This document shows positions 5,407-60,824 of a stretch of 64,000 nucleotides of DNA, in pieces. The translations under genes were made by a program, and so were the position numbers. The DNA is taken from NCBI RefSeq assembly GCF_037042905.1, contig NC_087251.1, positions 46,998,001-47,062,000 on the forward strand, given 5' to 3'. The first letter of the stretch is position 1, and the number at the start of each line of letters is the position of its first letter. The DNA is from Lytechinus pictus (taxonomy: Eukaryota). The notes beneath the pieces were generated by a model that had not been told where the DNA came from, did no database searches, and saw only the letters and a list, made by a program, of their open reading frames with translations.

Positions 5407-5553
5407 CTCTGTCAAGACCGTTTCTTGGGCACTTTTTTGAGGCATCCAGGAGGAGGAGGAGGACGAGACCAGATTGAAGTCATCCGATGGGATCTTGCTC
5501 CCATCCTCATCATCACCCTCGCAAGGAAATTGACCCTGGCTGCCGACGGCACT
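5407..5553 (-). CDS. TOP6BL: TOP6BL coding exon 14 (acidic/Ser-rich linker SAVGSQ...VLTE)
   Basis: gtcccacag| ... GAG|gtaagg; 147 nt, phase 0-0; low complexity, so no homology support. Confidence 0.7.
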
Positions 5554-8500
5554 CTGTGGGACGGTAAACAGGGAAGAGCCAAGATCCAACCAAAGTCTTC
5601 GAAACAGATGCTTGTACCCCCCCCCCCCATTAACTAAACACACATTGTGAAATATGATGAAGCACTGGGGATGAATCAAAGTGAATAATAAAGGGAGTAT
5701 CCGATGGTGATAAAAACTGTCGGAGAGAGGAAAAGCATCCTCAGTGAAAGAGTACTTAAAAGGGATAAAATTCAATAGTAAAAGCAGTCAACATTAAAAA
5801 TTCAATAGTATAATTCTCGGGAAGTAACGGATACGAGCATGTTTGCTCCCCTCCTAGAACTATCTACAAACATGATTACAAAAATGCAGAATTATTCCAT
5901 CGGTGATGTGCATTGAGCTAAGATGCATCTCCTGCAATTTTCAACTTTTAACAATTGTTAAATTTTTACAAGATTGACACTGAAATGCAAGTATTTTTAT
6001 GCGTCACTAACATCACTTGCAAAGCTGGATTCATATACTGAAAGAAGTTATCTTTTAATTTTGAAAATCATGGAAAACGTTACCATTTGCCTTTAATAAT
6101 GATGTGAAGTCTTTCTTTTTACCAAGTATTTGAAACTCCCAATAAACATCTAAACTAATGTGAAAATTTGAGAGAACCAACCTGAGAATGAAAATTCCTG
6201 TATTGACCGTTGGGCCTTTCACACAGCACCTTGAGGTGGTCAGATAATCGGTCGGTCAGTTCCATGCATGTATCGGCCTGAATGGAACAAAATATTAACA
6301 TATATATCAACTCAATGGCTTGACTTTTCAGAACAAGATACAGCAAAATAAGTGAAATTACTTTTATCTATCAGCTTTAACATCATTGTTAACAAAATCG
6401 TCATAATTTACAGCACCATTATCATTATTTTCATCATCACCAAGACAATCATTATCATCATCATCTTCATCCTCCATCTCCTGATGTTTATCATTATCCT
6501 CCTCCTCATCACCAACACCACCACAGTCCTAGTACATACCTGCAAAGCATCGAAACACCTTCGTCTAAATGTATCATTTGCACTGTGGCTAATGATCTTA
6601 TGGATAGATGATTTGATGGAAGGCACTGCAGATTTCATAATAGCTTCTCTCTGTAACAATGACAAAAAAAAATCAAGAATTGTTGTTAAAAAAACAAGTA
6701 TTATCAAATACCCATGATAGGATATTCTATCCCTCTTATGAACATTCATGAGTGTGATAAACGATTGGTCAATTAGTGATCATGTGACAAAGTATAATTC
6801 CAATAGGAAAAACATCGCTGCAAATAGCTCTGTACAGTTTTCTTCCAGCTCCGTATATTTTTTGATATACTTTCATGGGGAGAACTGCGCATGCTCACGC
6901 TCGATATGTTCTCTCAACGTTAAAATGCGCATACTCCCTGACTTGACCGTATCATCGATCCAGATCTTGCTCAAATTATTTACCGACAATCTGAAAAGTC
7001 AGTGTAGAATTAGGTCTAGATTATCATGCGGGAAATATAATTCCATGACGGCAATTCATACAGGACACATAGATTAATGGTGAATTAGCCTACTATTAGG
7101 CGAGTCAAAGTCCAATACGAGTCTTAAAAATATGTTAGCCTGCGCAATTACAAAATTATCTTGAGACTGAGTGCAACTGCAGCGTACCTCTCATTAACTG
7201 CAGTCGGGTACCGCGCGCAGCCTACCCAGGGACTGGCTAGCATTAGCTCGACAGGCCTAAGACTACTTAGGAATAGGTCCGGCAACGTTAGAATTGGTCT
7301 AAATTGGTGGCAAATCAGCAAGGACTAGGTCTACAAGTTAAAGAGGGATAAAAAACAAATATATCAGGCGTTTCTTTCGAAAGCATAGTGGTAATTATTA
7401 ATCTTTGGTTGGACTGGCAATGTAACTATTTTTCCCTCGGGAAAAATAGTGATTGCCAGTCTAACCTCGGATAATTCCCACTATACTTTCTCAAAGCCTG
7501 ATATATTTGTATACTATATAAAGTGTTCAGTCAGAATAGTTTCAAAATAGTTTTTCAGAATGCTTCAATATTGTCAACTGGGTGATAGAACACCTGAAGC
7601 TCTTTTTTTTTCAAGAAAATTTCAGATTTTCTATCATTTTCTATGTTAAATCTGTTTATTGTACATATTGTTTTTTTTGTTTTATTCTCTCTCTCTTATT
7701 TCCTTTATTCCCTTCTTCCTTCTTTCAAATCATATTATTCTTCCTCTAATATATCTTCCCTTCTCTCTCCAATTACTAATATCAGTTCACCTATATTTTA
7801 TCAGATTAGTTAGCACAATTGATATGTTCAATATAGTTAATATTGCATTATATGCTGTACAAATTTTGTAAGATTATTCATAATTCAGCAAGTTGACTGC
7901 AACAATTATTATTTCAATAAATACCATTATTAATATCATTAAGTCATCAGTGTTCTAGAAACATATACTTCTAGTGGTAAAATATGGTGCCACATTTTGC
8001 AACGAATAGAATAACATAATAAACAACAGATTATTTTTAGAGGTTAAAATGGGCTTAAAATGTCGCTGGAGCAAACATCTAGTCATTGTTCTCACACCTA
8101 TTGACAGAGTCTATTTGTGATCTATATTTAAAACGGCAGAATAATGGCAATATTCTCATATTTCACGAGCAAGCCTAAAGGAGATGTGCTTGTCCATCAA
8201 CAACTATTATCAAAATTGACAAAAGCATATTTCTCACAGTCATCCAAGAGGATATCTTACAATTTCCATCCTCATGATTGAAAAATAATTTACTTCCTCA
8301 CCGAGTCTCTCTCTCTCTCCCTTTTCTCTCTCTGTAAAGAAATAATGAAGTTTCATAATTTCTTTTTTTTAAACAATTTTCTCAATTTGTTTTATCTCCA
8401 GGCAATGGGGTAAGTGACAACATCAACGGTACAGCTTTTAAAATAGAATTTAAAAAAATGTGGTCTTGCACCTAAATAAATCAGGTATTTGCTTGAAAAT

Positions 8501-11500: not shown

Positions 11501-14500
11501 CAGGGCATTGAAAGCATCCGTTCTACAGCTTGTCACCTCGAGCTGGTTAAAAAAAAACCTAACCCGATAGAAGGTTATCTGCTCATTTCCATTATCTCTG
11601 ATCAACTCACATCTTTTCTGGCCGGTCGAGATGAGCCGAGGAGCTTGGCCAACGTGTCATGGATAATCTTCTGGATCCTGGAGAGTTGTTGGGTGCAGAT
11701 GTGAGGAAACTCCTGCCGCACCCGATTCAAGAGATCTTGAGAGGAGGAGGAGGAGGAACCCATGTAAAGTGGAAAAGAAAGTGAAAGATAAACATACATA
11801 GAAAGGGGAACAAGACACAAGAAACAAGACAAACTTGTAAACCCAAGCATGTTGATATCACTTTATCTATATTGCTTTTCTTACTGGTGCCATTCTTCAA
11901 TTTCCATTGGCAATTTATGTTAATAAAACAAGGACTCGTGACAAACAGTCAAATTTCCAAAAGAAAATAGATCTAAGAAAACATAACAAATAGTCACCAC
12001 TCCAACAAATAAGAACAAAACCTTATTGATGGTGATGTTAGCCGGATTAATTTTTTAAAAATAAGACGAAAGAAAACTACTAGGCAAAAGGAAATACAAA
12101 TCCTGACATAAAAGTTGATTGCAACCAGTAGAGTGAAATTGAACTAGAAATTTGACGTGTCCAAAGGACTCAGATGCCCCCGCTTAACACGATCAGAAAT
12201 TCATTCAATATGATTGAATGCATACAAATTTAGACCTTTGAACCAACTTGCATATATAATGAGCTGTGACCTTTGACCTGCGGACTCCGAATTCGAACTG
12301 AGTCTGTATTTTGGTATCATCTACCTACACACCCAATTTTTAAAAATCTGTTGAATATTTCATAAGTTATGTGGAAACCAACTTGCATATTTAATGAACT
12401 GTGACCTTTGACCTGCAGACTCCAAATTCGAACATGGCTTGTATTTTGGTCTCATTTACCTACACACCAAAATTTTTCAAAATCCATTAAATATTTTTCA
12501 AGTTATTGCGTGGAAACCAATTTGCATATCTAATGAGCTGAGACCTTTGACCTGCAGAGTCCAAATTTGAACTTAGTCTGTATTTTGGCGTTATCTACCT
12601 ACACACCAAATTTTTAAAAAATCTATCAAATATTTTTCGAGTTATTGCGCGGAAACCAAGTGGGGGGACGGACGGACAGGGGCTACGTTTAATGCCCCCT
12701 CGGACTTCGTCTGCAGGGGCATAATAACCCAAATGGGATAAAATGTTTACAGATATTGCATGAATCTTTAGGTTAGAGAGATAATAGCCTTAAAACACAT
12801 TTTCTGAGCAAAAGGTAAAATGATATAAAATACAATAATATAAAATACAAGTAACAAATGTGAGCAATTAATGAAATTGCACACAACCTTATTCATTGAT
12901 TCATACACCCGTGTAAACTCTAACTTTAGGGGTTTTTTGTGTGTAACTTGTTCGATTTGACACATGTTCATTGAAATGAAATACATAACAGGATCATGCA
13001 AAAAAATTAATTTGCTATTTCAGGGGAAACTTTTCACAACACATTGCTTTATATCTGCATCACTGGATAAGCTTTAACATTAAAATGAATAGAGATTTTC
13101 CTGGGCTGTTTTGAGCATTTCAGGGGACCTGATCAGGATGAATATCCACTTGATGCTCCTGTCACAGTCACACCAACGAAACTGACTCCAAACCAATCAA
13201 AACCATTACACTATTTCAGCTGGGTTACCATTGGTTGGTTTGAAGTACATTTCATTGGTGTAACTGACTCCAAACCAATCAAAACCATTACACTATTTCA
13301 GCTGGGTGATCATTGGTTGGTCTGAAGTACATTTCATTGGTGTAACTGACTCCAAACCAATCAAAACCATTACACTATTTCAGCTGGGTTACCATTGGTT
13401 GGTTTGAAGTACATTTCATTGGTGTAACTGACTCCAAACCAATCAAAACCATTACACTATTTCAGCTGGGTGACCATTGGTTGGTTTGAAGTACATTTCA
13501 TTGGTGTAACTGACTCCAAACCAATCAAAACCATTACACTATTTCAGCTGGGTTACCATTGGTTGGTTTGAAGTACATTTCATTGGTGTAACTGACTCCA
13601 AACCAATCAAAACCATTACACTATTTCAGCTGGGTAACCATTGGTTGGTTTGAAGTACATTTCATTGGTGTAACTGACTCCAAACCAATCAAAACCATTA
13701 CACTATTTCAGCTGGGTGACCATTGGTTGGTTTGAAGTACATTTCATTGGTGTAACTGACTCCAAACCAATCAAAACCATTACACTATTTCAGCTGGGTG
13801 ACCATTGGTTGGTTTGAAGTACATTTCATTGGTGTAACTGACTCCAAACCAATCAAAACCATTACACTATTTCAGCTGGGTAACCATTGGTTGGTTTGAA
13901 GTACATTTCATTGGTGTAACTGACTCCAAACCAATCAAAACCATTACACTATTTCAGCTGGGTGACCATTGGTTGGTTTGAAGTACATTTCATTGGTGTA
14001 ACTGACTCCAAACCAATCAAAACCATTACACTATTTCAGCTGGGTGACCATTGGTTGGTTTGAAGTATGTTTCATTGGTGTAACTGAAGCATAACAGGAG
14101 CTCACCTAGCCTGTCCTGAACAGTCATTGTAGATCCCTTGAAGTTCTCCTTGAAGAGCAGGATCAGATGGATGATATGGAGAGGTTCGCTGGTGTTGGTA
14201 CGGCCATAGAAAGTGGTTTGGAGGTCCACTTTGAAGCAATCTACACACACAGAACAAAAATTAATATCATTATGGATAATATTTTTCAGGAACAACTCTT
14301 TTTCCCTACAAGGGTATTCCACACTGAAATTAATAAATTTTTCGAACTTGAAATGCTCAAAATCTTATTTTCAAACTGGTACAGCAAAAGAGACTTGAAG
14401 GTCTAAGCAAATCAGACAAGAGAAAAAAATGGTTGAATAAATTAACAGGAAAAATGCAAACTAGGTTTATTTGCAGGAACAAATCCTTTTATCTAAAGGG

Positions 14501-19161: not shown

Positions 19162-19198
<37 letters not shown>

Positions 19199-19505
19199 TA
19201 TTATTATTATTAATATTGTTTCTATTATTACAATTATCAATAATCAATCATTACTATTATCATTATCATTATTACAGGATATACAGAAAAAAAACATACA
19301 AAGAAATACAACAAACTACATACAGTCATACAAATAAGGGGAAAATACATAATATAAAATAATTTCACTCAAAATCGGTACAACTTTGCTCTTAATTATT
19401 GTTATTGTTATTTATTTTCAATATCATTATTATCATTGTCATTATCGTTATTATTAATATTATTATTACTATTATCATTAATATAATTTTCCTATCATTA
19501 TTAAT

Positions 19506-19536
<31 letters not shown>

Positions 19537-31500: not shown

Positions 31501-32844
31501 TAATTTCAAGTATAATTTCAAAGTCTAAATATATCACACTCACGTCAACCAGTTATTTTCTAATATATTCTATCTTGCACCTTCATGAAAGAGAAAACAT
31601 AACTAATCATGATTCAATTTTCTTCTTTATAACAAGTACAAAAGTAGAAAAATATTTAGACTTGTCATAGCAGTAAAGATCAACTGGGTGACATTTATTT
31701 AAAAAAAAAAAGGATCATAAAATATATCAATAAGCCCATAATTGTGAGCAGTGAAAACTTCAATTTAAACTGCATCATTTCCCCGCATTTTCATTACTTC
31801 TTGTCCATCTATGCTACATCCGCCAGGATGTAGTTCATTCGTGCGGGCCTCGGGGAGAGAAGATCAAAGGTCCAGAGAAATGGGGGAAAGAAAACGAAAG
31901 AGAGAGAGAGAGAGAAAAGGAAAGAGAGTTTGGGTGAGAGAGAGATTATTATCAAATGCAGCCCTATAAATGTGAATAAGTGACTAAAAGCAACTTACAT
32001 GGGGATGTTCTGTGGAGAAAATTAAGATTTCAAGGGGAGAATAATACAGTTGTTTTTCAGACTCACACTGATAAAAAAAAACATAATATGATTGCCTTGA
32101 ATAAATAATTAAATAAAGTTTCTAAACGTTCATGGATTGAAAACCCTACAGTACTAACTACACAGAATATTGTCATAAGGGAAAACAGTGTTTTAAACTT
32201 GTTTTACCACACAACAGTTTTGCTCAAAAGTTAGTGAACCCCACCACAAAATGCACGCCTTCTTTTAGGCAAGCCAAGAGAGACAAACTTTGTTAAAATG
32301 TAATCACCTGACTTCACAAGTAAATATCTAAAACAAGGCAGAACCTGAACATTTAGAAATAAATATGTACATTCTCTGGTGGGGTTCACTAATTTTTAAG
32401 CATCACTGTATTACTGTACCAATGTTTTTAATCTTTTTTTTTAAACAAGTGAAATTAATCAAAATAATTTGCAACGTTCAGACCTCTGTCATCACCTAAG
32501 AAGGAAATAATAACACTGAAAGAAAAAGAAAAAAAAAAGAAAAAATGAGACAAAGAATCAGAGATTTTTTTTGAAAAAAAAAAACCCTTTGAGTCATTTC
32601 CATGACATTCAAACTTCATCCCCTACTTCACAGGGCCCAATGTTGCATGGCTTCAGACCAACACAGTTTTTAGAATAAAATTTACCCCCCCCAAAAAAAA
32701 AAGAAAGAATTGAACTAGATAAAAGAATTCATAAGAGGAGCGTGAAATGTCAGGTAAGTTCTGTTTAAATGAGTTTCTTAAAACCGTCAACTGCGACAGG
32801 CAGTAAGGGAATCATCTGGAAGCATCTATAGGCAAAGCAGACAG

Positions 32845-32876
<32 letters not shown>

Positions 32877-44800: not shown

Positions 44801-47800
44801 TGTGATGAATTATCCTCACATCCTTGACAACTACTACAAGGTCCTGTTTCATAAACCGTATTATCAAGCAATGAAAGAGATACAACTTGATTTCGTTAAC
44901 GAAAGCTATATCACATCCTTGACAACTACAGGACTCACAAACCCTGTTATCAATGCTAACGTTACTGATTCAAGCTACTGTAAAGATGTGATTTGATTGG
45001 TCAACAACACATTTGTCAAATCCTTGACTACTGCAGAACCCTGTTTCATAAAATTTGTTATCAATTCTAACTTTACTGTTGTAAGGTACTGAAAAGATGT
45101 GATTTGATTGGTCATAGACTAAAAAACATTTGTTAATATTGTTAAGCTTTTTGAAAGAGGCCTAAATCTCATCTTCCGCTGACCTTCAACAATGTTTTAT
45201 TTCTGTAGGAAGTTCTCCCTGATTCTGATTTAGTTGTCTGTGATATTCAAGATTCAAAATTATGTTCTACACACTTTCAAATGTCCATCTTTTCCACATG
45301 AAATGATGTAAGAAAAGGGAAAAGGGGTGATAAGGAGAGAAAAAGAGAGAGAGAGATAACTCGTAAGGATTATAACTAAACTAATTGTTCTACCCATTCT
45401 AATCTGGATATAGCTTTTCAGGCTTAGTGATTCTATAAAAGCATTTTCCTGCACTATTCTGCAGTAAATGATTGGCTGCCACTTAAACAAATATAATAAT
45501 AACATTCCATGGTGTCTTTCTTGCTCCAGTAAGATATCAGTAAATAATGTCAACTCTTATTTCTTTCTTTCTTTCTTTCATTCATTCATTCATTCATTCA
45601 TTCATTCATTCATTCATTCATTCATTCATTCATTCATTCATTCATTCATTCATTCATTCATTCATTCATTCATTCATTCATTCATTCATTCATTCATTCA
45701 TTCATTCATTCATTCATTCATTCATTCATTCATTCATTCATTCATTCATTCATTCATTCATTCATTCATTCATTCATTCATTCATTCATCATTCATTCAT
45801 AACGTATTATTTAAACAGGGTAACCCCATCAGTAGTCCAATACTTTTGTATTTGGGGGCCCTGTATAACATAGAACAAAACAAAATACAAGCATATATAC
45901 AATACAAATGGAAAATGCAAATCTTCTTCCAGTTAATATTATCATCTGAAATACCAATACCACCACTAAGCTATAAAAAAAATGGGAAATTATATCAAAA
46001 TGACATTAAGGAAAAACACTAAATTTCCCATTCTGTCACAAACCACATTTGCATTTGCATTTAAAGCATAGGCAATTCGCCTTCCTTTCAATCAGCTGAA
46101 ATGGCATATTTGATGGGAAAGAAGATATGAGCTAAATCCAGTTGCAGGTTTTAAATATGGAATGTACTTGTACATACACACACAGGAATGGGAAGAGAAA
46201 CATGCTTGATTAAATAGGAGGGGTGAAGCCCCGCTAGTCCCCCATGACAGGTATATCACGGAGGAAATCATATTAAGATAAGGAAAATATGAAGGGCAAT
46301 CGCCGTTAATATTGACTACTAAACATCGTGCAACAACGTTTAAGACCGGCAAATAGGTTTGTACTCTCGGATGAATAAATTTGCAACGTTTCAGTTTATG
46401 GATGTTTTAGGAACATTAGAGGTTCTTCCGCACAGTTGGATAGCAGTGAATGAGATCATATCAAGATAATGCATGCAATGGTGTGCTAACACAGCAAATA
46501 TTGATCTTAAAACAAGAATATACATCAATGTATGACAAAATATTGTACGCAATACTGCTCAGGATAAATTCACGTCTTTAGATCACTTAATTTTGCCCCT
46601 CCCTCATATAAAAACTACTTGCAAAACAATTTCAAAAGTACCTTAAAATATGGTGATAATCCTTAAACTTGCAAGCCATTTAAATGATTTGTTTATTAAA
46701 TTTATTTTCTATTCATTTTAATTTATCAAATTTGTTTTTATCATTCTATTATCTATTCTTCTTCATTCATTTTTTATTTCCCGAGGGGATTCCAAAGAAG
46801 AATGAAAAGCACTTACAACGATCTGTGAATAAATTATCTTTTGTTTTATATACTCGAATCCCCCACCCCCACGTTAGGAATAACCATAAAATATAGCAAA
46901 ACCAAAGTGGTCCACATGACTACAACTTTTGCAACAGATTGTCGCATCATCACATTCGGTGTATAAGTCAATGGGATATGAAGCAGCATTTTTTTCAAAT
47001 AGGGTTCAAGACAAGACATTATTTTGCCACTTGGCAGCAATCAGATGTAAGCCAATTAAATCCCATAAAAGTGTGATGTCATGGGTTCTCTAATGCAACT
47101 TTAGAGAGAGAGAAAACAAAATTGTATAAGAGTTGATAGTTATCGGCGATTGAAAATCTGCTACAAATGACTTGCACCTGGAAATGAACCCAAATTCAGA
47201 AAGGAAGATTTATGCATTGATTACAAAATGCATAATTGAATAATTCCTCTTTATGCAGGTGCCTAATGAAATATGGCATTGAAGCGCAGCTTCCTATAAT
47301 AACTAGCTAAAAGACCTTAACATATTTTAGGGTGTCTTGAACAGTTGCCAGTTATCCATTGACATCTCTAAAGTATCTAAAGCATTGTGAAATCGTAAAA
47401 ATAGTTCTTGGCAAAAAAAAGTGTAAAAAAGCATTAAATGTGTACTGAAGAACTTTGAAAGCAATCACGACGAGTGTAATATAAGAAACCAGTTTATAAA
47501 ATGATATACTGCTTGCTTCTGTAATAGTGGTATAATCATATGACTTATTCAACTATCTTTGTATATATGACTTATTTATACTGTCACATGATTTTATGTT
47601 ATAATCATGACTTATTTACTGTCTTTGTATTCTTGTTAAACAATATGATATCTATATTTTGTCTCATGTAAAGTTCATACAGAACTGCATCACTTATGCA
47701 CTTAATAAGTATTTTCTGTTACCATCATTATCAAATACTTGAAATTTTCTTGAAACATTCGTGAGAATTAAGCCTCAGCTTGCACTTCTCTGCCATACTC

Positions 47801-50800
47801 TCAACACACTGAATTTGTTTAAAAAAAGGAAATAAACGTGACTCTCTTCTCAATCGAAACATGCTACTTCGTGAAAAGGATATCCATAGCTGCGAAGGGG
47901 TGGCAGCCCGGGCCTGCAGGGGCGACGGCGGTGGAATGAGGGTTGCTACGGCCACGCACCTGGCAGAGAAGCATGACTCACTGGAGCCGAGGGAGGGCGA
48001 GAGGAAGACAAAACTCCCCTCTGATACCGGCCTGAGGTGATGACAGGGGGCACCCTGGACCCCGTCTGGGCTGCAAGGGGGAAATCGAAAGGGGGGGGGA
48101 AAAGGGAGAGGACAATTATTTCTATTGCATCTGATTTCTTACATGTACCTGTGCTGCATTGTTGCTTTACAATGTTTTAGCCAGTGTATACTGATGGATG
48201 TATGGCAAGCCATTTTCTTATTTAATCTAATTTTTTTTAATCAACCATTCCATACTTGATATCAAGAATTGACTATGATGACATAATATACCAAGAAATC
48301 ATATTATTAATTACATCACAAGATCATTTTGCGTTGTTAACAAATATAAATACTTGATATCGCACATTTCATTCTTGATATCAGGAATTGACTTTGATAA
48401 CACAAAATGTCAAGAAATCAAATTCTTTATATCAAGAAACCATTTTGTATTAAATAACAGAAATAAATTCTTGATATTGCACATTTCATAACAAGAATTG
48501 CATTTTGGTTGCACCACAAAAAGAGCAACAATAAGAAATCAAATTATTTGTATCAAGAAACAATTTTGGGTGTTTAAAAGATGCCAATATAGAAAAGGAT
48601 TAAATAAGATTATAGCTTGCCATACATATGTCCACATACGCTGGCAAAATCACCCAGGTGTAACAGACTCCCTATCTGCAAGGCTTTTTTTCACCATCGC
48701 ATAGAATCAATAACATCTAAGATTATATCTAAGCTGCACTAGGCAATAACCGTCAATAAAATGATTGATCATTAAAACTGAAGATACTGACATTTTCAAA
48801 AGTGGGAATAATACTGAACCTTAATTCAATTTTCTTTCCATCATCAGTAAATATTCAGCATAACCTTGCATACACCATTGTCTTACATTTTGCATTGCTG
48901 AATCAGTATACCAGATTAATAAATTTGATCATTTACTTTCAAAATTTGGAGGAAATAAGATTTTTACTCTGACTTTCGTTTTATCAAAATTGAAAATTGA
49001 TCTAGATCCAGTGACCAGTTTAGTTAAAAATACGTTTATATATATATACCCTATTTATAATGGTGAAATAAGTTTATTTGTATTGGAACTTTTTTAAACC
49101 TTGACTGTTTGCATAGAGTGTACATTTGATTACATCAACAGTTATGTCTTTAGATCCACTCTGATAACTGGGGGCCCGCTGAGAGAACAGTTTTCGGAAC
49201 TGAAGTGGCTACCCTGGGTAAATATGCAGATATTATTATTATTATTAACTGGTAAATTGCCACTTTGGCCTACAACCACTTTATCTACTTTCCAATCGGT
49301 CTCATCCCACTTGGCCTAATCCTAGCTCATCTACGAGCTTTTTGGTTCATCCAATACTAGTAGCCCATTTACCATTTTGTATAATATCCAGTTAGGCTGG
49401 CAAGTCTATTTTATGTGAAGTGAATATAAACCAAATTTTCATTTGACAAAACGTAAAATAATAAAGCAGACGGAAGTGGAAAATGGAAATTAAACCAGAT
49501 CTGGATATTAAACTATAAAAAGGTTAAACCAAGTGAGTGATCACTATTTTCAGTCCTGCAATTAATTGGAAATTCATAGTAGTGGTCACACCACCAGAAC
49601 TTTGCTGGAGCGGTGAAAAAAATTTATCACTGCTCGTTACCATTCACCGTTTAACAGAAGTTGGCCACCGTTAAGGCAACGCTGTATACGCTCCGCCACC
49701 GCTGATGGTCCCTCCTACCGCTCTGAAAGTTTTGAGCTGCACAAAATATTGTGAGTGGTGAGGAGCGGGCAATTTTTCGGCTCCGGCAAAGTTCACCACC
49801 GCTCCAACAATGCCAAGTCAAAGTTTGGCACCACTAAATGCAAGTTCGTGGACACTTGGGTCCGCTAGGCCAACGCAAAATCTTGAACGCTGCGGTGATC
49901 AAATGTTGCACAAACTTTGGTGGAGCGGTTGTAAGCGTTTTACGAGCAGGCACGGGATTGCTGGAACGGTGTCGGGGACGTAGAAGCAGCGATCCATTGC
50001 GGTGATGAACTTTGGTTTGGCGTTGGTATGGAGGTGTCACTGCTAAACCAATGCTCGCTACCGTTAAACCAACGCTAAAGAAACAAAGGCTTTAGCGGTG
50101 CACCGCTAAAGCATTGCCGTGTTTTCGATTTTTCTTCCCATTTTGCGCGCGGTTGACGAGCGTCATCAAAATTCGACCCCCTCTCCCTACCATTCAAGGA
50201 ACGCTTAAACAAAGTTCGGGCGGTGTGACCATGGCTTTAGATTAACTGCCGATCTCCTTCTTGCAAGAAGGAGTGTGATCTGATTTGCCACAGATAAAAT
50301 TGATCTATAAATTGTATAAATGAAACAGAATATTTGCAACTGATTGCAAATATCTTCTTGCAACAACCCCAAAGTGATGCTCAGATCAAATGACAATTAG
50401 ACCAAACTGATAACAGACCAATGGAGTTTGGTCATCATGATGTAAGACATTCAGAGAATTGGACTGTATGCTAATAGATACAAGGGGGCACTTATATGCA
50501 ATCAATTCATCATAATCATATATATGAAAGCCATTTTTTAAAGGTCGAATACACCCCAGAAAAATGTTGATTTGAATCCAAAGAGAAAAATCAAACAAGC
50601 ATAACACTGAAAATGTCATCAAAATCGAATGTAAAATGAGGAAGTTATCACATTTAACATTTTCACCTTTTTTTCACAAAACAGTTTCATGCACAAATCA
50701 GTGATATGCAAATGAGAGTAAATGATGTCCCTCATTCACTATTTCTTTTTTGCTTTTGATTGTTTGAATTATTATTTTACAATAAGGACAAACTTGATTG

Positions 50801-53800: not shown

Positions 53801-56800
53801 TATGAAATACAAACCGAAATATTCATAAAATGAATAAGAAAATTTCCTCCTGAAAGTTTAAATACCGTGGATGGATTTCACATAATTCTACAAGTTTATT
53901 TTATTTATTTGTAAAGAACTTATACATAAATTTTTTTTAAATACAATTAATACATATCACCCTTTCCATCCGTATATATTAGAATTAATTATGTGAAAAC
54001 ACACATTCATAATAATGAAGATGAAATATAATTTCATGTACCTTACTTTTGTTGATCTTCTTTTTTTTATACTATAAATGAAACAATAACATCCATATTT
54101 TGAAAAAAGAGAATGAATTCAAACATTGAATACATGGTGGGTTAAAATGGTTTAATTACCATTTAACTATTTTATCAAGTATTACAAAATCTCACATTTT
54201 GATGATTTTGAATGAGAACTATTAAAAAGAGGAGAAAAGAATCATTAAAATATCACATGCAGGAATGTAAAATATTATTGTTTTCCAATAACTTTCAAAG
54301 TTCTTCCAGTAGTAGAAATCATCTCAAAAGATTATACAGGTAATCCTCAGCACAGCTGGCATTTAGGATATTATTTAACATCAAATAGTGTATATAAGTA
54401 TAGTATATTTGTAGTTCTTGTAAGAGTCTACCATTAGGTCAGAAGTTGCCACAAGATGGCAGCATTTCACACAAACATCAGACTCTGTACAATAACCTTC
54501 CATAAGTCAAAATAATCGCCTATTAGTTTAGTTCACATGCACGTTGATCTTTTTTTAATATCAATTCATAAATACCACCAATAGAGGGCAGTATACAAAA
54601 TATTCTTACCCATCTCATCGGTCCAATGCCACAAACAAGCCAACTTCCAGGAAAGATGAAATATTGAAAAACCAACAAAAGATAACTGTTTTGAAAATGT
54701 AAAGTGTAAAACAACATTGTTAGATTATACCTTCTAACCAAATTGAAAAAGTCAACATTGAACAACAAAACACAAACTATTTTATGAGCAAAAAACAATT
54801 GCTTTCATACTTAACAAAACAAAAACCAAATATAACACTGTAACAAACACTGGTTAAAAACAGACCTTGTTCTTTCAAAGTAGATATTAATGTTGTCAGG
54901 ACCCTTTTTTTTTATCTTTTCTAGAAAATTACTAAGATCATCTATCTGATATATATAGAACTATTCATCAAATTGGTTGATTGAAAAATTCATATAATGT
55001 ATCTGAAAGAGAAATATCAAACAGAAATCCATTACCTGTTGAAACAGGATTTAAAGTAAATCCAAATTTTTTTTTTTTTTCAAGTTGAACATAAACATCT
55101 AATTTATAATATACAAATCAAAACACTGTAATAATACTCACATTAAGAAATATCTTGGGTCAGTGATAATGTCTATTCCATGGCAAATTGAAGCAAATTC
55201 AATTTTCCTTTCCCTGCAAATAAAATATAAAATCAGTAAGCCAATACATTATACAAAAACAAAAATAAATATATAAGAGAAATTGTAATAAAACAAAAAT
55301 CACATATATGTTTTTCCCACAATTAATCATATGCATAAATGGTTGATATAACAAGATACATGACTGAAGTTCCTTATCAAAATTCTACACTTGTCCTAAA
55401 TGAATTGTTTTTTTCTTTTGCTTGTTTCATACTATTCTATTCGAGAAATTGCACACCATAGTTAAAAGTTATAATAATCGCGCAGAATTTCCTTTTAAAC
55501 ATAAAGAAAATTCTAGGCAATTATTAATAATTTGTATTCCATGGTGCCCAATTTTCTGTTCATCAGTCTGTCCTATATCATTTTGGGGGTATTTTTGGGG
55601 TGAATATCAAAAAGTAAATAAAATTCAATCATACTCAAAGTTCTTGAAATCCAGCTTGTCACATTTTGAAGAAAGTCCAACTGCAATCTGTCAAGAAAGA
55701 AAGATAGAAAGACAAATTAAAATACAAATAAATGCTAAAGAAAATCATCTAGTAGGCGAATTACTGGGAAAGGTTTGCTACTTTGCCAGAATACATATCA
55801 TATCAAAGCTCTTTAATCCCTTTTTTTCATACATTACTAATTAATGAACAGTTTTAGAGGAGCAAAGTCACTCTAATGGCTAATGTTCTTTAAAAAAAAA
55901 AAATTAAAAAAAAAGATACAACCTATCATAAGACTTACACTGGGTGGTTTCAGACCGCCTCGAAGTTTGTCAGTTCCAGGTATTCTCTGATCGGGAAATT
56001 TACCCCGATCAGAAAATACCAGGTATTTTGGTAATGTGAAAGCAAACTACGCGTAATTTCCCCAAAAGAAAATACCCGCTAAATTGTAGGTACTTGGCGA
56101 AATTACGAGAACTTTCGCGGGGATTTTTCCAAGGTCGCAGGTATTTTGGCAATGTGAAAGCAATTTACGGGAACTTTTAGCCCAGCGTGTCGTTGGGCGC
56201 GGGCGCCGTGGGTGGCTGCTGGGCTAGTGGTTTTGAATCTCGCGCCTTGCCTGCTTATTAGACCATACTGCGCATGCTCCTAACTTCAGGAATTTATCCC
56301 AAAGGGTATGTTTCGGGGCGGTGTGAATGCAGGAATAATTAATGGGTATTTTTTAGCCTAAAAATGTTCTCATAATTTAACGGGGATTCTTGTGATCGAG
56401 GCGGTTTGAAACCGCCTATATTTCATGAAAAGGCAGAAGACTGAAATTTTCTGAAGATATCTAAATGCCATGTCCTCTACCACTCACCTATCTGATATAA
56501 ACAAAGTGATCCATGATATGTAGCCTGATTCGCCATGAACCTATCCACGGAGGATTATCTATAGTTACTGGGGGTGCTGTGACAATGCTCAGCACCCCCA
56601 GTAACAATAGAATAATCCTCCGTGGATAGGTCCATGTGATTCGGGGTTTGGTAGATTCTAAAAATTGGTCTATATGTATCTCTTTTTTTTTTCCGGTGAG
56701 CCAGTATCAAGACAAAGACAAGATGATGGGATATTCCCTTTCCCCTCAAGTTGGCTATCATACTATATATTTGGAGGCTACACAAAACCATAGATAGCTA

Positions 56801-59800
56801 TATTCATACAAAGTTTGTACCTCATTGTGATATCTTTTCCCCTTAAGTCGACTGTCAAACTAGGGGAAAAATTTCAAGGGGCTCAGACGATTTCTCCCCT
56901 GAAATGCTCAAAAAGAGCGGTGGAAAATAAAAAAAGAGTGCTGGAATCCCATTCACTGCAATGTTAAAGCTTATCAAATATTGCAGATTTAGGCTGTAGG
57001 TTGTCAAAAGTAGCCCCTGAAAATTAAACTTAATTTTTTGCCTGTATCGAACTGTAGACATTTACCCGAATCATCGTTGCATCTGCTAGTGATTGATAAA
57101 AAAAAGGGGTACTGAAAAATCACTATGTGAATGCTGGGAAATCTACACTACTGGTGAGAATGTGGGAAGAGCTTCTTCAAGGACAAGTCCACCCCAACAA
57201 AAAGTTGATTTGAATAAAGAGAGAAAAATCTGACAAGCATAACACTGAAAATTTAATCAAAATCGGATGTAAAATAAGAAAGTTACGACAGTTCTGCTTA
57301 ATTTCACAAGCAACACTTTAAAGTGTCATAACTTTCTTATTTTACATCCGATTTTGATGAAATTTTCAGCGTTTTGCTAGTTTGATTTTTCTCTATTTAT
57401 TCAAATCAACATATTTCTGGGCTGGACTTGACCTTTGAATTACCAATGGATGAACCAGCTTGAACTTGAACAAGAAATTCCTCACATCTAAGCAACACTT
57501 TGCAAGTTCTTCCATTGTACTTGGACACTGAAGATAAAAGGGGATGTAACATATAGAGAAAGAGAAAGTGAATGAAGGGCATAAGAAATATGTCTTAATA
57601 CTTTGCATACAATTTTCAAACATATATCTTGGTAAACCTGTAGAGAATCACAACTTTCTGGTATCAAAATATTGTTGCATATTACCAAGATGGTTTTGAG
57701 AAATATAAATTCTTATCAAAACAAATTGAGCATCGATACACAAGGTCTGAAACCCGACAAAGAGTCTTCTACATTGCACTGATTTTTAGAATAGTTTGAG
57801 GATAGGAAGTCAGCACAAGTATTATTGGACTAAAAATATTTTGGCACACAGAAATTTTTACAATTTCTTTTTTTTGTGGGGGAGGGAGGGGGAATTCAGA
57901 ATATTTCGAATTCTAATTCTCACCTGCTAACTTTTCTTTTTAAAAAGAAGTTAATAGTTTGACAATGTTAGAAAAAAATAAAACTTACAGAAAATATGTA
58001 AATTTAAGACCATCAAGAAAATGCAGAACATAAATATACTGAATCAGAATCAATTAGTATTTTCAGTGTATAATTTTGCACCACACCATGGATAGCTAAA
58101 ATAATACATCTAACACCATCTATCTACACAGGGCTACTGAATACAATAGTATCAAAGATATCAACTCACTTTCAATGTAATGGTGACATCGGTTTGTGTA
58201 TTCTCTACAGCTAGACCAGCTTCCTCATGACAGACATCGAGTCGTCCACTTTGCATGGTAATGGTGTACCTATCTTCTTTTGACCGGTTCACTGCTATGT
58301 ATCTCATACAGGCAGCATCACCACTAGCTTCGGTCTCTCCCGTAGTCATGGGAACACCCTCATCAAGAACTGACGCCAAACTTGGACAACCATCTGTTTG
58401 GACAGAAGGGTGATACAAAAATACATAGCCCATGATAAACTAGACAAGGATGCAGTCAAGCTTCTTCCCAGATTCGATAAGACTTTGGAACTCCCTCCCC
58501 AACAGCACAGTTAATTGTACCTCTCTACACATCTTTAAACAAGAGGTACAAAAGACCCAGCTCCGTTAATAACGGTGGTTGTTTTTACTTGCACGCTGTA
58601 AGCAATTTTTTATCAAATAATGTACATACACTTGCACGCTGCACTTCACCAGTACGACAATACACCAGACGGTGGACTGTACTGTTTCCAGAAGAAGAAG
58701 AAGAAGGCCACATTGTGCCAGCCTTTGCCTTGGGCCGAATCACATGTAAAAGGTCTACAGAGAAGGTTTTTCCAGTAGTCTCGTGATCAGGGCCCAGGGG
58801 GGCGTTTCATAAAGCTGTTCGTAAGTTAAGAGCGACTTTAAGAACGACTGGTGAACCTTTCTTACGTGCCAAACCATCGCCAATGAATATACCATTTACC
58901 ACAAGAAAGTATCACCAGTCATTCTTAAAGTCGCTCTTAACTTACGAACAGCTTTATGAAACATCCACCTGGGAACAATTTTTTTAGATGGGGTTGCTGA
59001 TGCAAATATAACAAGGAAAAAAAAAGGTTTTCAATATAGAATGAAAGAAGTCATTTTAATTACACTTCTCCATTTTTCACATCTTCCAGAATTCCAGGGG
59101 GTGCGGCCTATGGAGAATAATGCACGCAGCACCCCCCCCCCCCCCCGGCGACTGACTAGGCATTTGAAAGTCCGGGATTCGACCCCCAGCACCCCCGCTT
59201 CCAAGGGCCATGCTCATGACTCGACTACATCTCTAATTGACAACCACCTGTTTGGACAGAATACACAATCATCAAAAGAAAAACCATTCCAATGAATGAT
59301 CATTAATGTAACAAGTGACGGCCACGTATATAGGAAATCCTCGAGGGCAACGGGCAATTCTGCCCAAATGACAGAATGACAAATCGCCCCTAAAATTCCC
59401 AAATTGAATACTTTGGGGCAATCATCTCTTCTAAAGTTGCCAAATGAGGTGCCACAAACAATATTCAAGAAACTTTAGAAAATAGTAAAATCTCACCTAA
59501 TACACCTTTGCAAGACAGCAAACTCGTCCATGTTCCCTGGACTTTGACTGCAAGAGAGCAGAGATCATGAAAAGAAAAAAAACAATGAAAAAGGCTAATA
59601 CAAGCACCTGGAAAATGAATTTTAATCTTGGATGGATTCTTAAGCAATTTTAGAAAACTAAAATTCATTTTATTTCATATACTGTATAATACACACAGAA
59701 GAATGGGCTTTGACAGGTCATCATCCATTCATTGTGACAAAGCCTTACTCACTGTTCACTGGAAAGAATGAGAAATAATAGATTTTTTCCTTTTTTTACA

Positions 59801-60824
59801 TGGAAGATTGACTTTTGTTTAATGAGTTATCCTGGTGAAATACGAACATATCTAGGCCTAAATAGATTTTTAAAAACATAAAATTTTCAATGGAGTATTC
59901 AATGCTCATCAAATTCTCACCCTTTATCTTTGAATACATAGTGTAATAGAGATCATTGCTCCCACTCCTAGATGATCAGATTTTAGCAGTAAAAAAATAA
60001 GCATTGAAGGACTGAATAAATGTCACTTACAATTCACATTATTGCACCCAGTGTTTTCACTTCTGCTAAATCTCACATCCAACACATCTTCAGCAGAGTG
60101 CCCAATGGACTTGAATGTTGCCCGATGGGTCAGTACACACTCCAGTATCTAAATTTACAATGAAAAAGAGAAAAGATATCAGAGATAGGAGATAAATAAA
60201 GAGAGAGCAAGTGAAATGATGGGGGGGGGGAGTGGTAGAGACAGACCGACCTACAAATCAAAATTTAAATGACTTTGGTCGGGGGGGGGGGGGGGGGTGT
60301 CCACAACTGAAAAATTTACAACATTAAGTTAAGTGTACATAAAGTGTACACAATGTCCTCCGTGGCCAGAATCCTGGAAGCTCAAAGGTTCTGTGGTAGA
60401 ATCCCTTGTGGGAAACACTCATGGGAAAAGACGATGCCATGAATTTGATGTTAAAGATATGGCTCTAACAGAGGTGCATCACTGACGCTATAAAATTATT
60501 TCAGCCTACTTATTTGCAAGGGTTATTTTGGTGAAAATGTCAACTATTATCAGGGGCAAGGTGGGGTGTATTGAGAAATGAAAGTGGCAAAAATGTCAAA
60601 TATTAATAAAGAACATTTCAAAAACTGAAAGACCTCTTCCTTTAAATTCACCCCAAACATAAATAAAGAAAAGTTCCTGTTTATGATAATATTAGGCAAG
60701 TATGTTACCCTTTCTCCAGAAAAAAAACAAATTGGTACTTGGCACAGAATGACAAAACTATCTTATCTTGTAAATTGAAAAGTTGAAAACTTACTTCAAT
60801 GCAAACTTGTGAGAGAACCGCCAT
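5407..60824 (-). CDS. TOP6BL: Spliced gene: type 2 DNA topoisomerase 6 subunit B-like (TOPOVIBL), meiotic SPO11 partner; 14 coding exons, 3' end not located
   Basis: Exon chain 60795-60824, 60031-60148, 59497-59547, 58170-58393, 57444-57527, 55635-55687, 55142-55213, 47884-48070, 30308-30476, 14106-14240, 11611-11735, 6540-6650, 6182-6277, 5407-5553 gives 534 open codons with matching phases. Colinear similarity to human TOP6BL as I recall it: VCIEILECVLTH~AVFEILRFLIIH; CLDVRNFLFKFKLVHP~CLVIKHFLRKIIMVHP; GIDIITDPRYF~GIALLVDSQHY; LSVYGPGSFPL~IFLYGPLGLPL; LVKWKELGL~LVDWKKYHL; SIHKIISHSANDTFRRRCFDALQADT~[27 protein letters not shown]. No database search was run. Confidence 0.88.
6182..6277 (-). 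CDS. TOP6BL: TOP6BL coding exon 13 (ADTCMELTDRL...NFHSQ)
   Basis: ttccattcag| ... CAG|gttggt; 96 nt, phase 0-0. Confidence 0.85.
6540..6650 (-). CDS. TOP6BL: TOP6BL coding exon 12 (REAIMKSAVPSI...FRRRCFDALQ)
   Basis: tgttacag| ... CAG|gtatgt; 111 nt, phase 0-0; S...FR..C...LQ motif of TOP6BL. Confidence 0.9.
7355..7510. mobile_element. Small palindromic MITE-like element
   Basis: acaaatatatcaggc ... gcctgatatatttgt inverted termini with internal symmetry. Confidence 0.6.
9047..9461. mobile_element. MITE, PIF/Harbinger-like
   Basis: TIR AGGCGACCGCACACCTTACGA vs AGGCCACCTCACACCTTACAA; TAA duplicated on both flanks. Confidence 0.75.
10250..10432. mobile_element. Palindromic MITE family A (about 170-180 bp), copy 1
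   Basis: gtttcataaagctgttcgtaagtt...aacttacgaacagctttatgaaac; CTG on both flanks; other copies at 23135, 36294 and 58798. Confidence 0.85.
11611..11735 (-). CDS. TOP6BL: TOP6BL coding exon 11 (DLLNRVRQEF...PARKD)
   Basis: cctcctctcaag| ... GAT|gtgagt; 125 nt, phase 1 to 0; amphipathic helix pattern fitting the transducer stalk. Confidence 0.85.
12142..12726. mobile_element. Helentron/HINE-like non-autonomous element with internal tandem repeats of about 137 bp
   Basis: Subterminal IR atgcccc/ggggcat, terminal hairpin atgccccctcggacttcgtctgcaggggcat, ggac microsatellite, three gacctttgacct-containing repeats. Confidence 0.65.
13181..14087. repeat. 82-bp tandem repeat array (11 near-identical copies)
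   Basis: Unit actgactccaaaccaatcaaaaccattacactatttcagctgggtNaccattggttggtttgaagtacatttcattggtgta; period 82 holds from 13181 to 14083. Confidence 0.97.
14106..14240 (-). CDS. TOP6BL: TOP6BL coding exon 10 (DCFKVDLQ...HIIHLILLF...QDRL)
   Basis: tgtgtgtag| ... TAG|gtgagc; 135 nt, phase 1-1. Confidence 0.85.
16761..17353. mobile_element. TTAA-targeting MITE family B (Kolobok/T2-like), full-length copy
   Basis: TTAA|AGGACAAGTC ... GACTTGACCT|TTAA with long imperfect TIRs; related copies at 33694, 50542 and 57180. Confidence 0.85.
19040..19585. repeat. Two (ATT/ATC)n microsatellite tracts inside a degenerate local duplication
   Basis: ATT-rich runs at 19040-19275 and 19395-19585, each preceded by a similar aaatacataat...aaatcggta segment. 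Confidence 0.9.
20266..20697. mobile_element. MITE with 6-bp target-site duplication
   Basis: Perfect 14-bp TIR CAGACCTGCCAACC; TCATGG on both flanks. Confidence 0.85.
20787..21866. mobile_element. TIR element interrupted by a LINE fragment
   Basis: TIR GGGGCCAGTCAAATATA(C/T)TGCT(G/C)TACA at both ends. Confidence 0.7.
21201..21820 (-). mobile_element. 5'-truncated CR1/L2-type LINE 3' end
   Basis: Minus strand reads YPTRKGNRVIMPKPKTENCKRTFIYRCGK*YNNLP (ORF2 C-terminus pattern), then a 3'UTR with AATAAA and an (CCAAA)n tail. Confidence 0.7.
21948..22423 (+). mobile_element. 476-bp MITE family C, copy 1
   Basis: TIR GGTGGTTTCAAACCGCCTCGA; near-identical inverted copy at 55942-56417. Confidence 0.85.
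22447..22587. mobile_element. Short (about 140 bp) CCAAT-core MITE family D
   Basis: gggagtgtttcata...ttcatgaaatgctcccc with core agccaatc.gatgcaaggattt; degenerate relatives near 3650-3750, 16405-16530, 36128-36279, 42150-42270 and 51305-51435. Confidence 0.6.
23135..23305. mobile_element. MITE family A, copy 2
   Basis: Palindromic; CTG duplicated on both flanks. Confidence 0.85.
23439..24205. mobile_element. 767-bp non-autonomous DNA transposon, Harbinger-like
   Basis: TIR GG(C/G)TGCGTTTAT; ATG duplicated on both flanks; repeated subterminal AATCATGATT palindromes. Confidence 0.8.
25905..26110 (+). mobile_element. Degenerate tRNA-derived SINE
   Basis: A-box-like gatgtagtgg and B-box-like ggtttgaaccc at tRNA spacing, followed by a body not resembling tRNA; probable 3'-half remnants at about 28730-28870 and 49165-49245. 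Confidence 0.5.
26309..26913. mobile_element. Nested insertion: TTAA-flanked element (26416-26809) inside a CAGAGCTGCCA-TIR element
   Basis: Outer termini cagagctgcca / tggtagctctg; inner TTAA|AGGTAAAT ... ATTTAGCT|TTAA. Confidence 0.6.
29680..29834. mobile_element. 155-bp palindromic MITE
   Basis: TACCTTGGTCACATTTG ... CAAATGTGACCAAGGTA; TTA duplicated on both flanks. Confidence 0.85.
30308..30476 (-). CDS. TOP6BL: TOP6BL coding exon 9 (LSVYGPGSFPL...VKWKELGL...GPPTR)
   Basis: aaaatac| ... AG|gtaagt; 169 nt, phase 0 to 1; carries the YGP motif and the WKxY-equivalent motif; this frame is absent from the supplied ORF track. Confidence 0.88.
32215..32408. mobile_element. Tc1/mariner-like MITE
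   Basis: cagttttgctcaaaagttagtgaaccccacc ... ggtggggttcactaatttttaagcatcactg|ta. Confidence 0.65.
33125..33504. mobile_element. 380-bp MITE, Harbinger-like
   Basis: TIR TACCCCTTTCATAAACC; TTA duplicated on both flanks; internal aatgcggataat repeats. Confidence 0.85.
33694..34207. mobile_element. MITE family B, inverted copy with one end eroded
   Basis: TTAA|AGGTCAAGTC start; homologous to 16761-17353 in reverse. Confidence 0.75.
36294..36455. mobile_element. MITE family A, copy 3
   Basis: Same palindromic arms with a small deletion. Confidence 0.8.
36691..37525 (-). mobile_element. Helentron/HINE-like element with internal tandem repeats, copy 1
   Basis: Subterminal IR GTCTCACCTGCAT/ATGCAGGTGAGAC, terminal hairpin gtctcactctgctatgcaggtgagac, A-run flanks, gacctttgacct repeats of 160-190 bp. 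Confidence 0.75.
38099..38889 (-). mobile_element. Helentron/HINE-like element, copy 2
   Basis: Same termini and internal repeats as 36691-37525, in the same orientation. Confidence 0.75.
45576..45800. repeat. (TTCA)n microsatellite
   Basis: Over 50 near-perfect TTCA units. Confidence 0.98.
47884..48070 (-). CDS. TOP6BL: TOP6BL coding exon 8 (PDGVQGAPCHHLRPV...ATPSQLW), ending at a U12 donor
   Basis: ttcccccttgcag| ... TGG|atatcctttt; 187 nt, phase 2 to 0; GC-rich. Confidence 0.85.
49578..50236. mobile_element. GC-rich non-autonomous TIR element
   Basis: tggtcacaccaccagaacttt ... aaagttcgggcggtgtgacca; internal accgct/agcggt repeats. Confidence 0.7.
50542..51227. mobile_element. MITE family B, diverged copy with an internal insertion
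   Basis: TTAA|AGGTCGAAT ... TTATCCT|TTAA; homologous to 16761-17353. Confidence 0.75.
55142..55213 (-). CDS. TOP6BL: TOP6BL coding exon 7 (EERKIEFASICHGIDIITDPRYFL)
   Basis: ttatttgcag| ... AT|gtgagt; 72 nt, phase 2-2. Confidence 0.85.
55635..55687 (-). CDS. TOP6BL: TOP6BL coding exon 6 (IAVGLSSKCDKLDFKNF)
   Basis: ctttcttgacag| ... GA|gtatga; 53 nt, phase 0 to 2. Confidence 0.8.
55942..56417 (-). mobile_element. 476-bp MITE family C, copy 2 (inverted relative to 21948-22423)
   Basis: Reverse complement of copy 1 with few substitutions. Confidence 0.85.
56534..56636. mobile_element. 103-bp hairpin MITE, hAT-like
   Basis: Near-perfect stem of about 46 bp with CATG termini; flanks TGATTCGC / TGATTCGG (7 of 8 match). 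Confidence 0.75.
57180..57434. mobile_element. MITE family B, internally deleted foldback copy
   Basis: Only the two TIR arms remain: AGGACAAGTC ... GACTTGACCT. Confidence 0.8.
57444..57527 (-). CDS. TOP6BL: TOP6BL coding exon 5 (CPSTMEELAKCCLDVRNFLFKFKLVHPL)
   Basis: ttatcttcag| ... TTG|gtaatt; 84 nt, phase 0-0; resembles the TOP6BL FL.K..LVHP segment. Confidence 0.88.
58170..58393 (-). CDS. TOP6BL: TOP6BL coding exon 4 (DGCPSLASVL...DVTITLK)
   Basis: aaacag| ... AAA|gtgagt; 224 nt, phase 1 to 0; within ORF 58161..58433. Confidence 0.85.
58432..58706 (+). mobile_element. 5'-truncated CR1/L2-type LINE 3' end
   Basis: Plus strand reads SFFPDSIRLWNSLPNSTVNCTSLHIFKQEVQKTQLR* (SFFP...WNSLP ORF2 C-terminus), then a 3'UTR and a (GAA)n tail. 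Confidence 0.85.
58798..58968. mobile_element. MITE family A, copy 4 (probably nested in another repeat)
   Basis: Palindromic arms; CAG/CTG flanks. Confidence 0.8.
59497..59547 (-). CDS. TOP6BL: TOP6BL coding exon 3 (FKVQGTWTSLLSCKGVL)
   Basis: ctctcttgcag| ... TAG|gtgaga; 51 nt, symmetric phase 1-1 (could be skipped in frame). Confidence 0.75.
   Translation of the reverse strand, partial: SKSREHGRVCCLAKVY
60031..60148 (-). CDS. TOP6BL: TOP6BL coding exon 2 (ILECVLTHR...GCNNVN)
   Basis: tttag| ... |gtaagt; 118 nt, phase 0 to 1, open frame. Confidence 0.85.
60795..60824 (-). CDS. TOP6BL: TOP6BL coding exon 1 (MAVLSQVCIE); the exon including 5'UTR spans 60795-60870
   Basis: Acceptor ctgttag before 60870; in-frame TGA upstream of the ATG; context aagATGG; donor GAA|gtaagt, phase 0. 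Confidence 0.8.

Follow-up and report, generated by a model that had tools for sequence, protein, structure and literature searches.

Meiotic recombination begins with DNA cuts made by the enzyme SPO11, and TOPOVIBL is its partner in the break-making complex. TOPOVIBL is essential for starting meiotic recombination, evolves fast and is routinely missed or mis-annotated. The chordate proteins, TOP6BL, make up the Pfam family PF15091 (DUF4554), whose curated cut-off is 27 bits. The text of PMC9665070 describes TOPOVIBL as widespread in animals and its GHKL-like domain as lacking ATP-binding motifs. In the mouse, W562 and W572 lie in the helix that binds REC114, as given in the text of PMC9671922, and Top6bl is named among minor-intron genes in that of PMC12956336. 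The main text of PMC9665070, figure 5B and supplements aside, names no echinoderm. In our literature search, no paper mentioned TOPOVIBL or TOP6BL together with 'urchin'; the single one that mentioned C11orf80 alongside this word concerns fragile sites.

We analyzed a window of 64,000 nucleotides, C7:46998001-47062000 in the 812-Mb Lytechinus pictus assembly, in which a sequence-only reading had reported 14 small exons that join into 534 open codons of a hidden, divergent TOPOVIBL orthologue. When we spliced exons 1-14 by their coordinates with a script, the same 534 codons were recovered, in 1602 nt and with no stop. The exons lie in order on the minus strand, from the ATG at 60824 to 5407, and four of five short motifs of the previously assembled protein mapped to this strand, ordered from 60824 to 5466. 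The identification held up, given the collinear relatives, two of which (P0004 and P0007, below) score over the PF15091 cut-off, and the GHKL fold. We put the probability at roughly 0.9 that the locus is one gene of 16 exons and 845 codons for the TOPOVIBL/TOP6BL orthologue of L. pictus, the B-like subunit that accompanies SPO11. A search of the genome found no second locus for a TOP6BL-like protein.

NCBI lists two genes here, LOC129265668 and LOC129264120, both under the name 'uncharacterized protein [Lytechinus pictus]', which is the fate that had been predicted for the gene in automated pipelines, namely, to be fragmented or called uncharacterized. Their products are P0001 (266 aa) and P0003 (483 aa), respectively. 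An exhaustive HMMER search with P0001 as the query retrieved P0004, a protein of 770 aa (E 2.9e-27), which matches P0003 over the whole length of the latter (E 1e-81). P0004 is encoded on a contig assembled from a public run, whose length of 2,846 nt suggests an mRNA. A further search added LOC763563 of S. purpuratus (P0007, XP_011668978.1, 673 aa) and a protein of Diadema setosum (P0008, 564 aa). Each of these three full-length echinoderm relatives aligned with the joined model in a single block: P0007 with 70.8% identity over 468 residues (model residues 67-534), P0004 with 45.4% identity (residues 4-531) and P0008 with 35.3% identity (residues 1-534).

RNA reads were mapped on 47800-60900. 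The features of the gene are as follows, with the pieces of RNA contigs from the runs X7 and X1 where they apply.

Exon 1: 60795..60824, minus strand; start codon at 60824, 10 codons, donor GTAAGT; matches P0001, and its 30 nt agree with the end of the RNA contig of 895 nt.
Exon 2: 60031..60148, minus strand; 118 nt, AG and GTAAGT at its ends; X7 and X1 contig pieces are exactly 60031-60148.
Exon 3: 59497..59547, minus strand; 51 nt; both contigs leave a 51-nt gap between their exon 2 and exon 4 pieces.
Exon 4: 58170..58393, minus strand; 224 nt, encodes the GHKL-like domain's core strands; 100% identical to P0001; contig pieces are exactly 58170-58393.
Exon 5: 57444..57527, minus strand; 84 nt; from here on the orthologues match the DUF4554 profile.
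Exon 6: 55635..55687, minus strand; 53 nt; joint 55212->55634 in X7 and X1 contigs.
Exon 7: 55142..55213, minus strand; 72 nt; the GHKL-like domain ends here; RNA contig joints on both sides.
Extra exon, '7b': 54610..54685, minus strand; 76 nt, AG and GTAAGA sites, between exons 7 and 8.
Exon 8: 47884..48070, minus strand; 187 nt, GC 0.66; codes for the linker region and is followed by the AT-AC donor; contig piece is exactly 47884-48070.
Intron of U12-type AT-AC sequence: 30477..47883, minus strand; 17,407 nt.
Exon 9: 30308..30476, minus strand; 169 nt, GC about 0.62; the second NCBI model starts at an internal Met (30422).
Exon 10: 14106..14240, minus strand; 135 nt.
Exon 11: 11611..11735, minus strand; 125 nt, best-conserved helical region, 70% identical to P0004.
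Exon 12: 6540..6650, minus strand; 111 nt.
Exon 13: 6182..6277, minus strand; 96 nt.
Exon 14: 5407..5553, minus strand; 147 nt, non-terminal; donor GAG|GTAAGG leads to exon 15.
Exon 15: C7:46991312-46990455, minus strand, outside the window; 858 nt, Ser-rich, GT-AG sites.
Exon 16: C7:46988154-46988080, minus strand, outside the window, followed by TGA; GT-AG sites.

The boundaries of exons 1-14 in the earlier gene model were right, but its 3' end was incomplete, as exons 15 and 16 were missing. Exon 15 is reached across an intron of 12.1 kb (intron 14), and the full coding sequence of 2538 nt, with its 845 codons in 16 coding exons, extends over about 70.7 kb and ends about 10 kb past the window. 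The splice sites had been described as phase compatible. Indeed, 12 of the 13 introns within the window have GT...AG ends in compatible phase; the boundaries at exon 8/exon 9 were also placed correctly, but they are of the AT-AC and not the GT-AG type.

Exons 8 and 9 encode a GC-rich stretch, rich in Pro, Ala, Gly and Ser, between the two conserved domains. Their GC contents exceed those of the other exons (0.32-0.54) and of the window (0.32-0.39).

Repeats occupy parts of the introns. In intron 10, a unit of 82 bp is repeated in tandem at 13180-14087 (11.1 copies, 98% matches), beginning 19 bp past the exon 10 donor, and in intron 14 a unit of 60 bp forms another tandem array at 165-2198 (34 copies, 90% matches). 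An interspersed repeat of about 180 bp, at 58793-58973, 23130-23309, 10249-10436 and 36293-36459, matches copies of itself on both strands with 76-94% identity. In RNA-like runs, this repeat and the intronic stretches 49111-49547, 50422-51295, 55666-56539 and 56977-57413 had contig depths in the thousands, indicating that they are abundant transcribed repeats.

The intron between exons 8 and 9 starts with ATATCCTTTT at 47883 and ends with ...TCCCTTAATCACAAAAATAC, with neither GT nor AG at its boundaries. A branch-site-like TCCCTTAAT ends 12 nt before the terminal AC at 30477, and [AG]TATCCTT occurs only four times on the minus strand of the window. The consensus of U12-type AT-AC introns comprises a 5' end /ATATCCTT, a terminal AC and a branch-site motif some 10-15 nt upstream. 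Judged by this sequence signature, the exon 8/9 intron is of the U12 AT-AC type. The protein junction that it produces is conserved in P0004, P0007 and P0008, and two RNA contigs end or diverge from the genome exactly at 47884. We also considered an in-phase GT-AG option, with the donor CCAG|GTGCGT at 47960 and a CAG acceptor at 30471. It was rejected because the orthologues keep the residues that it deletes and the RNA contigs reach 47884. A (TTCA)n microsatellite of 60 copies is found at 45561-45800, within the U12-type intron.

The gap between the two NCBI gene models coincides with the AT-AC intron. P0001 consists of exons 1-7, then the 76-nt exon and then exon 8 in another frame to a stop. 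P0003 begins at the Met inside exon 9, continues through exon 14 (its match to exon 10 is 98% identical) and has about 240 further residues encoded outside the window by two further exons. We infer that the AT-AC intron and the frame-shifting 76-nt exon, both of which sit where the annotation breaks, caused it to fail. The weak spot after exon 7 seems to recur in another genus, as a Diadema antillarum protein (P0006, XP_071509791.1, 254 aa) leaves the family right after the equivalent of exon 7, compared with 564 aa for the Diadema setosum protein. Two smaller discrepancies were seen. Exon 15 of this assembly encodes about 70 more Ser-rich residues than P0003, and P0003 and another NCBI model, P0002, differ by 2-4% from the window sequence. 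These differences look like allelic or assembly-version variation, or an internal splice of exon 15.

Taken at face value, the NCBI models describe two separate genes, one for a GHKL-like-only protein of 266 aa and one for a transducer-plus-tail protein of 483 aa, that is, a naturally split B-like subunit comparable to yeast Rec104 and Rec102. Such a split would agree with the RNA contigs of two runs, which hold the 76-nt exon that ends the first frame inside exon 8, and with the TOPOVIBL forms without a GHKL-like domain that the text of PMC9665070 reports from several animal groups. It is nevertheless distinctly unlikely, given that exon 8 is conserved in the frame of the 534-codon model and not in that of NCBI (56% identity to P0004, E 3e-12), and that P0004, P0007 and P0008 all read straight through exons 7-8-9. 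Moreover, the 717-nt X1 contig covers exon 8 and links it, at exactly 47884, to 527 further letters, a length that would fit exons 9-11 and part of exon 12 in one transcript, and neither a promoter nor a first exon of its own was seen for the second half. A single gene is the reading that we retain.

The X7 contig (895 nt, depth 17.6) has pieces that are exactly 47884-48070, 58170-58393 and 60031-60148, corresponding to exons 8, 4 and 2, and this coincidence of contig pieces with exon ends confirms the exon boundaries. The length of this contig equals that of exons 1-8 plus 76 nt. The joint 54685->55142 was found in both X7 and X1, as was that between exons 6 and 7, and the 76 nt correspond to the exon 54685-54610. 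A direct joint between exons 7 and 8 was absent from the 15 joints listed among 53, and raw reads of two other runs, X8 and X9 (about 6% of the reads), contained no joints of the TOP6BL-like gene. An index search listed no RNA run for exons 12-14. The 717-nt X1 contig extends two bases past the exon 8 acceptor (48071-48072). They match the end of neither exon 7 nor the 76-nt exon and may reflect an additional isoform, a retained intron or an artefact of the assembly.

Alignment of spliced RNA to the proposed junctions had been suggested as a check of the 14-exon model. The boundaries of exons 2, 4 and 8 and the divergence at 47884 were exact, but the spliced contigs seen carry the 76-nt exon, which the model skips; the frame that results from skipping is the one conserved in the orthologues. 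With the 76-nt exon the frame shifts and meets a stop within exon 8, at 47980, which lies 96 nt ahead of the following exon junction and would truncate the protein at 266 residues. Two runs have this exon in their RNA contigs, as do the NCBI models P0001 and P0002; it is absent from all three full-length orthologues and is single copy in the window. It may be a 'poison' exon. Conservation argues for the productive form in which it is skipped, whereas the RNA seen carries it.

Another reading is a decaying or unproductive copy of the gene, always transcribed with the frame-breaking exon and yielding no full-length protein. Among the contigs listed, the only visible form is indeed the one that includes the 76-nt exon, as do both NCBI models of the N-terminal half. 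Against such decay, all 16 exons are open and their splice signals intact, and the 70.8% identity to S. purpuratus over 468 residues includes everything downstream of the break. In addition, the genome search found no other locus for the protein, and the genome has retained SPO11, with an SPO11-type TP6A_N domain (PF04406) at a single locus, C17:6068683-6068796 (51.1 bits against a cut-off of 26). An unproductive copy is therefore very improbable, more so than two separate genes.

Within a functional TOP6BL gene, the two splicing features might be part of its control. The form with the 76-nt exon would stop translation after the GHKL-like domain, while the productive mRNA would require that this exon be skipped and that the 17.4-kb AT-AC intron be removed by the minor spliceosome. 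Production of the SPO11 partner could thus be gated by splicing, or the truncated GHKL-like protein could have a role of its own; we consider either proposal doubtful. We know of no 76-nt frame-breaking exon in vertebrate TOP6BL. If the gate were real, a splicing switch specific to the germline or to a stage would decide whether meiotic breaks can be made.

Membership in the family was examined with Pfam. P0004, with 44.3 bits (E 1.7e-11), and P0007, with 31.9 bits (E 9.9e-8), were over the PF15091 cut-off and P0008, with 21 bits, was below it, so that two of the three full-length relatives pass. PF15091 was the only family over threshold in the orthologues. A profile match to DUF4554 had been proposed as a check of the assembled protein, and it was obtained with these orthologues, but not with the window's own halves. 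PF15091 was the top Pfam match of P0003, at 16.1 bits (E 0.006) and at the corresponding profile positions, 212-322, but below the cut-off, and P0001, the N-terminal half alone, had no Pfam match. Eleven single exons searched against Pfam gave no PF15091 match and only chance-level matches. Against PDB sequences, phmmer searches with P0001 and P0004 returned one chance match (E 0.18), and an echinoderm profile (A1) found no chain. Rfam at its gathering thresholds had no match in the window. Each of the three named atlas clusters nearest to P0004 bears the name 'type 2 DNA topoisomerase 6 subunit B-like' (scores 0.96, 0.95 and 0.95), with PF15091 on 96-100% of their members. For residues 1-213 of P0001, a cluster of the same kind came first at 0.87, a score that the atlas search rates as a lead only, with generic HATPase families next.

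The gene is hidden only in a relative sense. In L. pictus it is represented by two unnamed NCBI genes, but its S. purpuratus orthologue is already labelled DUF4554 in public data. The locus adds an L. pictus member to the known TOP6BL family; its gene model is now corrected, and two splicing features of it deserve note.

Structure models, both of low confidence, were used to compare the domains with known folds. The model of P0004 had a mean pLDDT of 38.8, with residues 22-200 or so at 50-82. In Foldseek, its best eight chains all came from topoisomerase VI-B of S. shibatae (E 1.3e-5 to 8.2e-5), and the matches listed were without exception GHKL ATPases. In VIA-align, the top matches were 2q2e_B (Z 12.7, rmsd 3.3, 160 residues aligned) and 2zbk_B (Z 12.7, rmsd 4.1, 173 aligned), so that Top6B came first, in a tie that also included ParE, Topo IV and Topo II. 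A mean pLDDT of 57.6 was reached in the model of the window's own N-terminal half. Foldseek placed GyrB first (E 7.2e-6) and 1mx0 at ranks 4-5 (E 2.8e-5), all of the matches listed again being GHKL ATPases. The best 11 rows of VIA were all ATPase domains of type II topoisomerases (Z 10.3-12.0). Top6B was one of these tied best matches, with 2zbk_B at Z 11.5 (rmsd 3.4, 158 aligned) and 2q2e_B at Z 11.4, and MORC, MutL and Hsp90 were lower. The predicted fold of the N-terminal half, exons 1-7, is therefore the GHKL fold of the type II topoisomerase kind, and in these models Top6B is not singled out by the fold alone.

The GHKL domain of TopoVIB-like proteins had been described as degenerate, in agreement with the combination of GHKL fold matches and missing motifs seen here. 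DxGxG, GxxGxG and ExxxN were all absent from residues 1-213 of the model and of P0001 in a pattern search, as distinct from a structure-based alignment. C-terminal to this domain, the region of exons 8-9 was modelled below pLDDT 50 in P0004. The conserved helical region, which the DUF4554 profile covers, is encoded by exons 10-13. Helices were predicted at residues 404-507 of P0004 (pLDDT about 40-74), in the best-conserved region; their fold matches were unspecific (Z 4.8-5.9). The tail, encoded by exons 15-16, is Ser-rich, and its end is a short, conserved, helix-like stretch with two Trp 10 residues apart. This W-x9-W pattern is found at the extreme C terminus in exon 16, P0003, P0004 and P0007, and a helix was predicted there with low confidence in P0004 (residues 740-769).

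Some other GHKL-domain protein (MORC-, MutL-, Hsp90- or sacsin-like) that merely resembles TOP6BL is exceedingly improbable: the N-terminal domain is inseparable by fold from other type II topoisomerase ATPase domains and its atlas score is only 0.87 with generic HATPase families behind it, but PF15091 is the sole family over threshold in the orthologues, type II topoisomerases score Z 10-12 compared with Z 7-9 for MORC, MutL and Hsp90, and both the lack of ATP-binding motifs and the C-terminal helix pattern fit TOPOVIBL.

If the L. pictus TOP6BL protein works as its mouse and archaeal counterparts are described to do, its helical region (exons 10-13) would bind SPO11, its terminal helix (exon 16) would bind REC114, and its degenerate GHKL domain would no longer hydrolyse ATP. 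L. pictus is under development as a genetically tractable sea urchin, and the correct 16-exon, 845-codon model would permit knockout or tagging of the gene in this species.

Among the known systems, archaeal Top6B (S. shibatae 1mx0/2zbk_B and M. mazei 2q2e_B) resembles the L. pictus protein in the predicted fold of the N-terminal domain (Z 11.4-12.7, 154-173 residues aligned). It differs in sequence, with 7-12% identity; the L. pictus protein lacks DxGxG and GxxGxG, and no transducer match was obtained. By fold and by the literature, the L. pictus protein is a relative of archaeal Top6B and not a member of that group. With yeast Rec102/Rec104 and plant MTOPVIB it shares the slot of the B-like Spo11 partner, according to the text of PMC9665070. 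In yeast the B-like function is divided over two proteins, whereas in L. pictus there is one gene that is divided by annotation only.

The direct orthologue is S. purpuratus LOC763563, with 70.8% identity and with junction peptides and a C-terminal helix that are common to both. It is annotated as one gene, 'uncharacterized' and apparently without its first 60 residues or so, in contrast to the two genes of L. pictus. Vertebrate TOPOVIBL/TOP6BL (mouse Top6bl, human C11orf80) is too diverged from the L. pictus protein for detection with a single sequence, and the latter is longer, with 845 aa compared with the 579 aa of the mouse protein implied by the residue numbering in the text of PMC9671922; the extra length is mostly that of the Ser-rich exon 15. 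In likeness to the vertebrate proteins, the orthologues P0004 and P0007 match PF15091 over threshold, and the N-terminal GHKL-like fold without ATP-binding motifs is followed by a conserved helical middle, a disordered tail and an end helix whose W-x9-W has the spacing of mouse W562/W572 (text of PMC9671922). Furthermore, at least one U12-type intron is present in the mouse gene, as listed in the text of PMC12956336, and in the L. pictus gene. If its position is the same in both, this intron would serve as an old marker of gene structure in a family whose sequences are hard to align.
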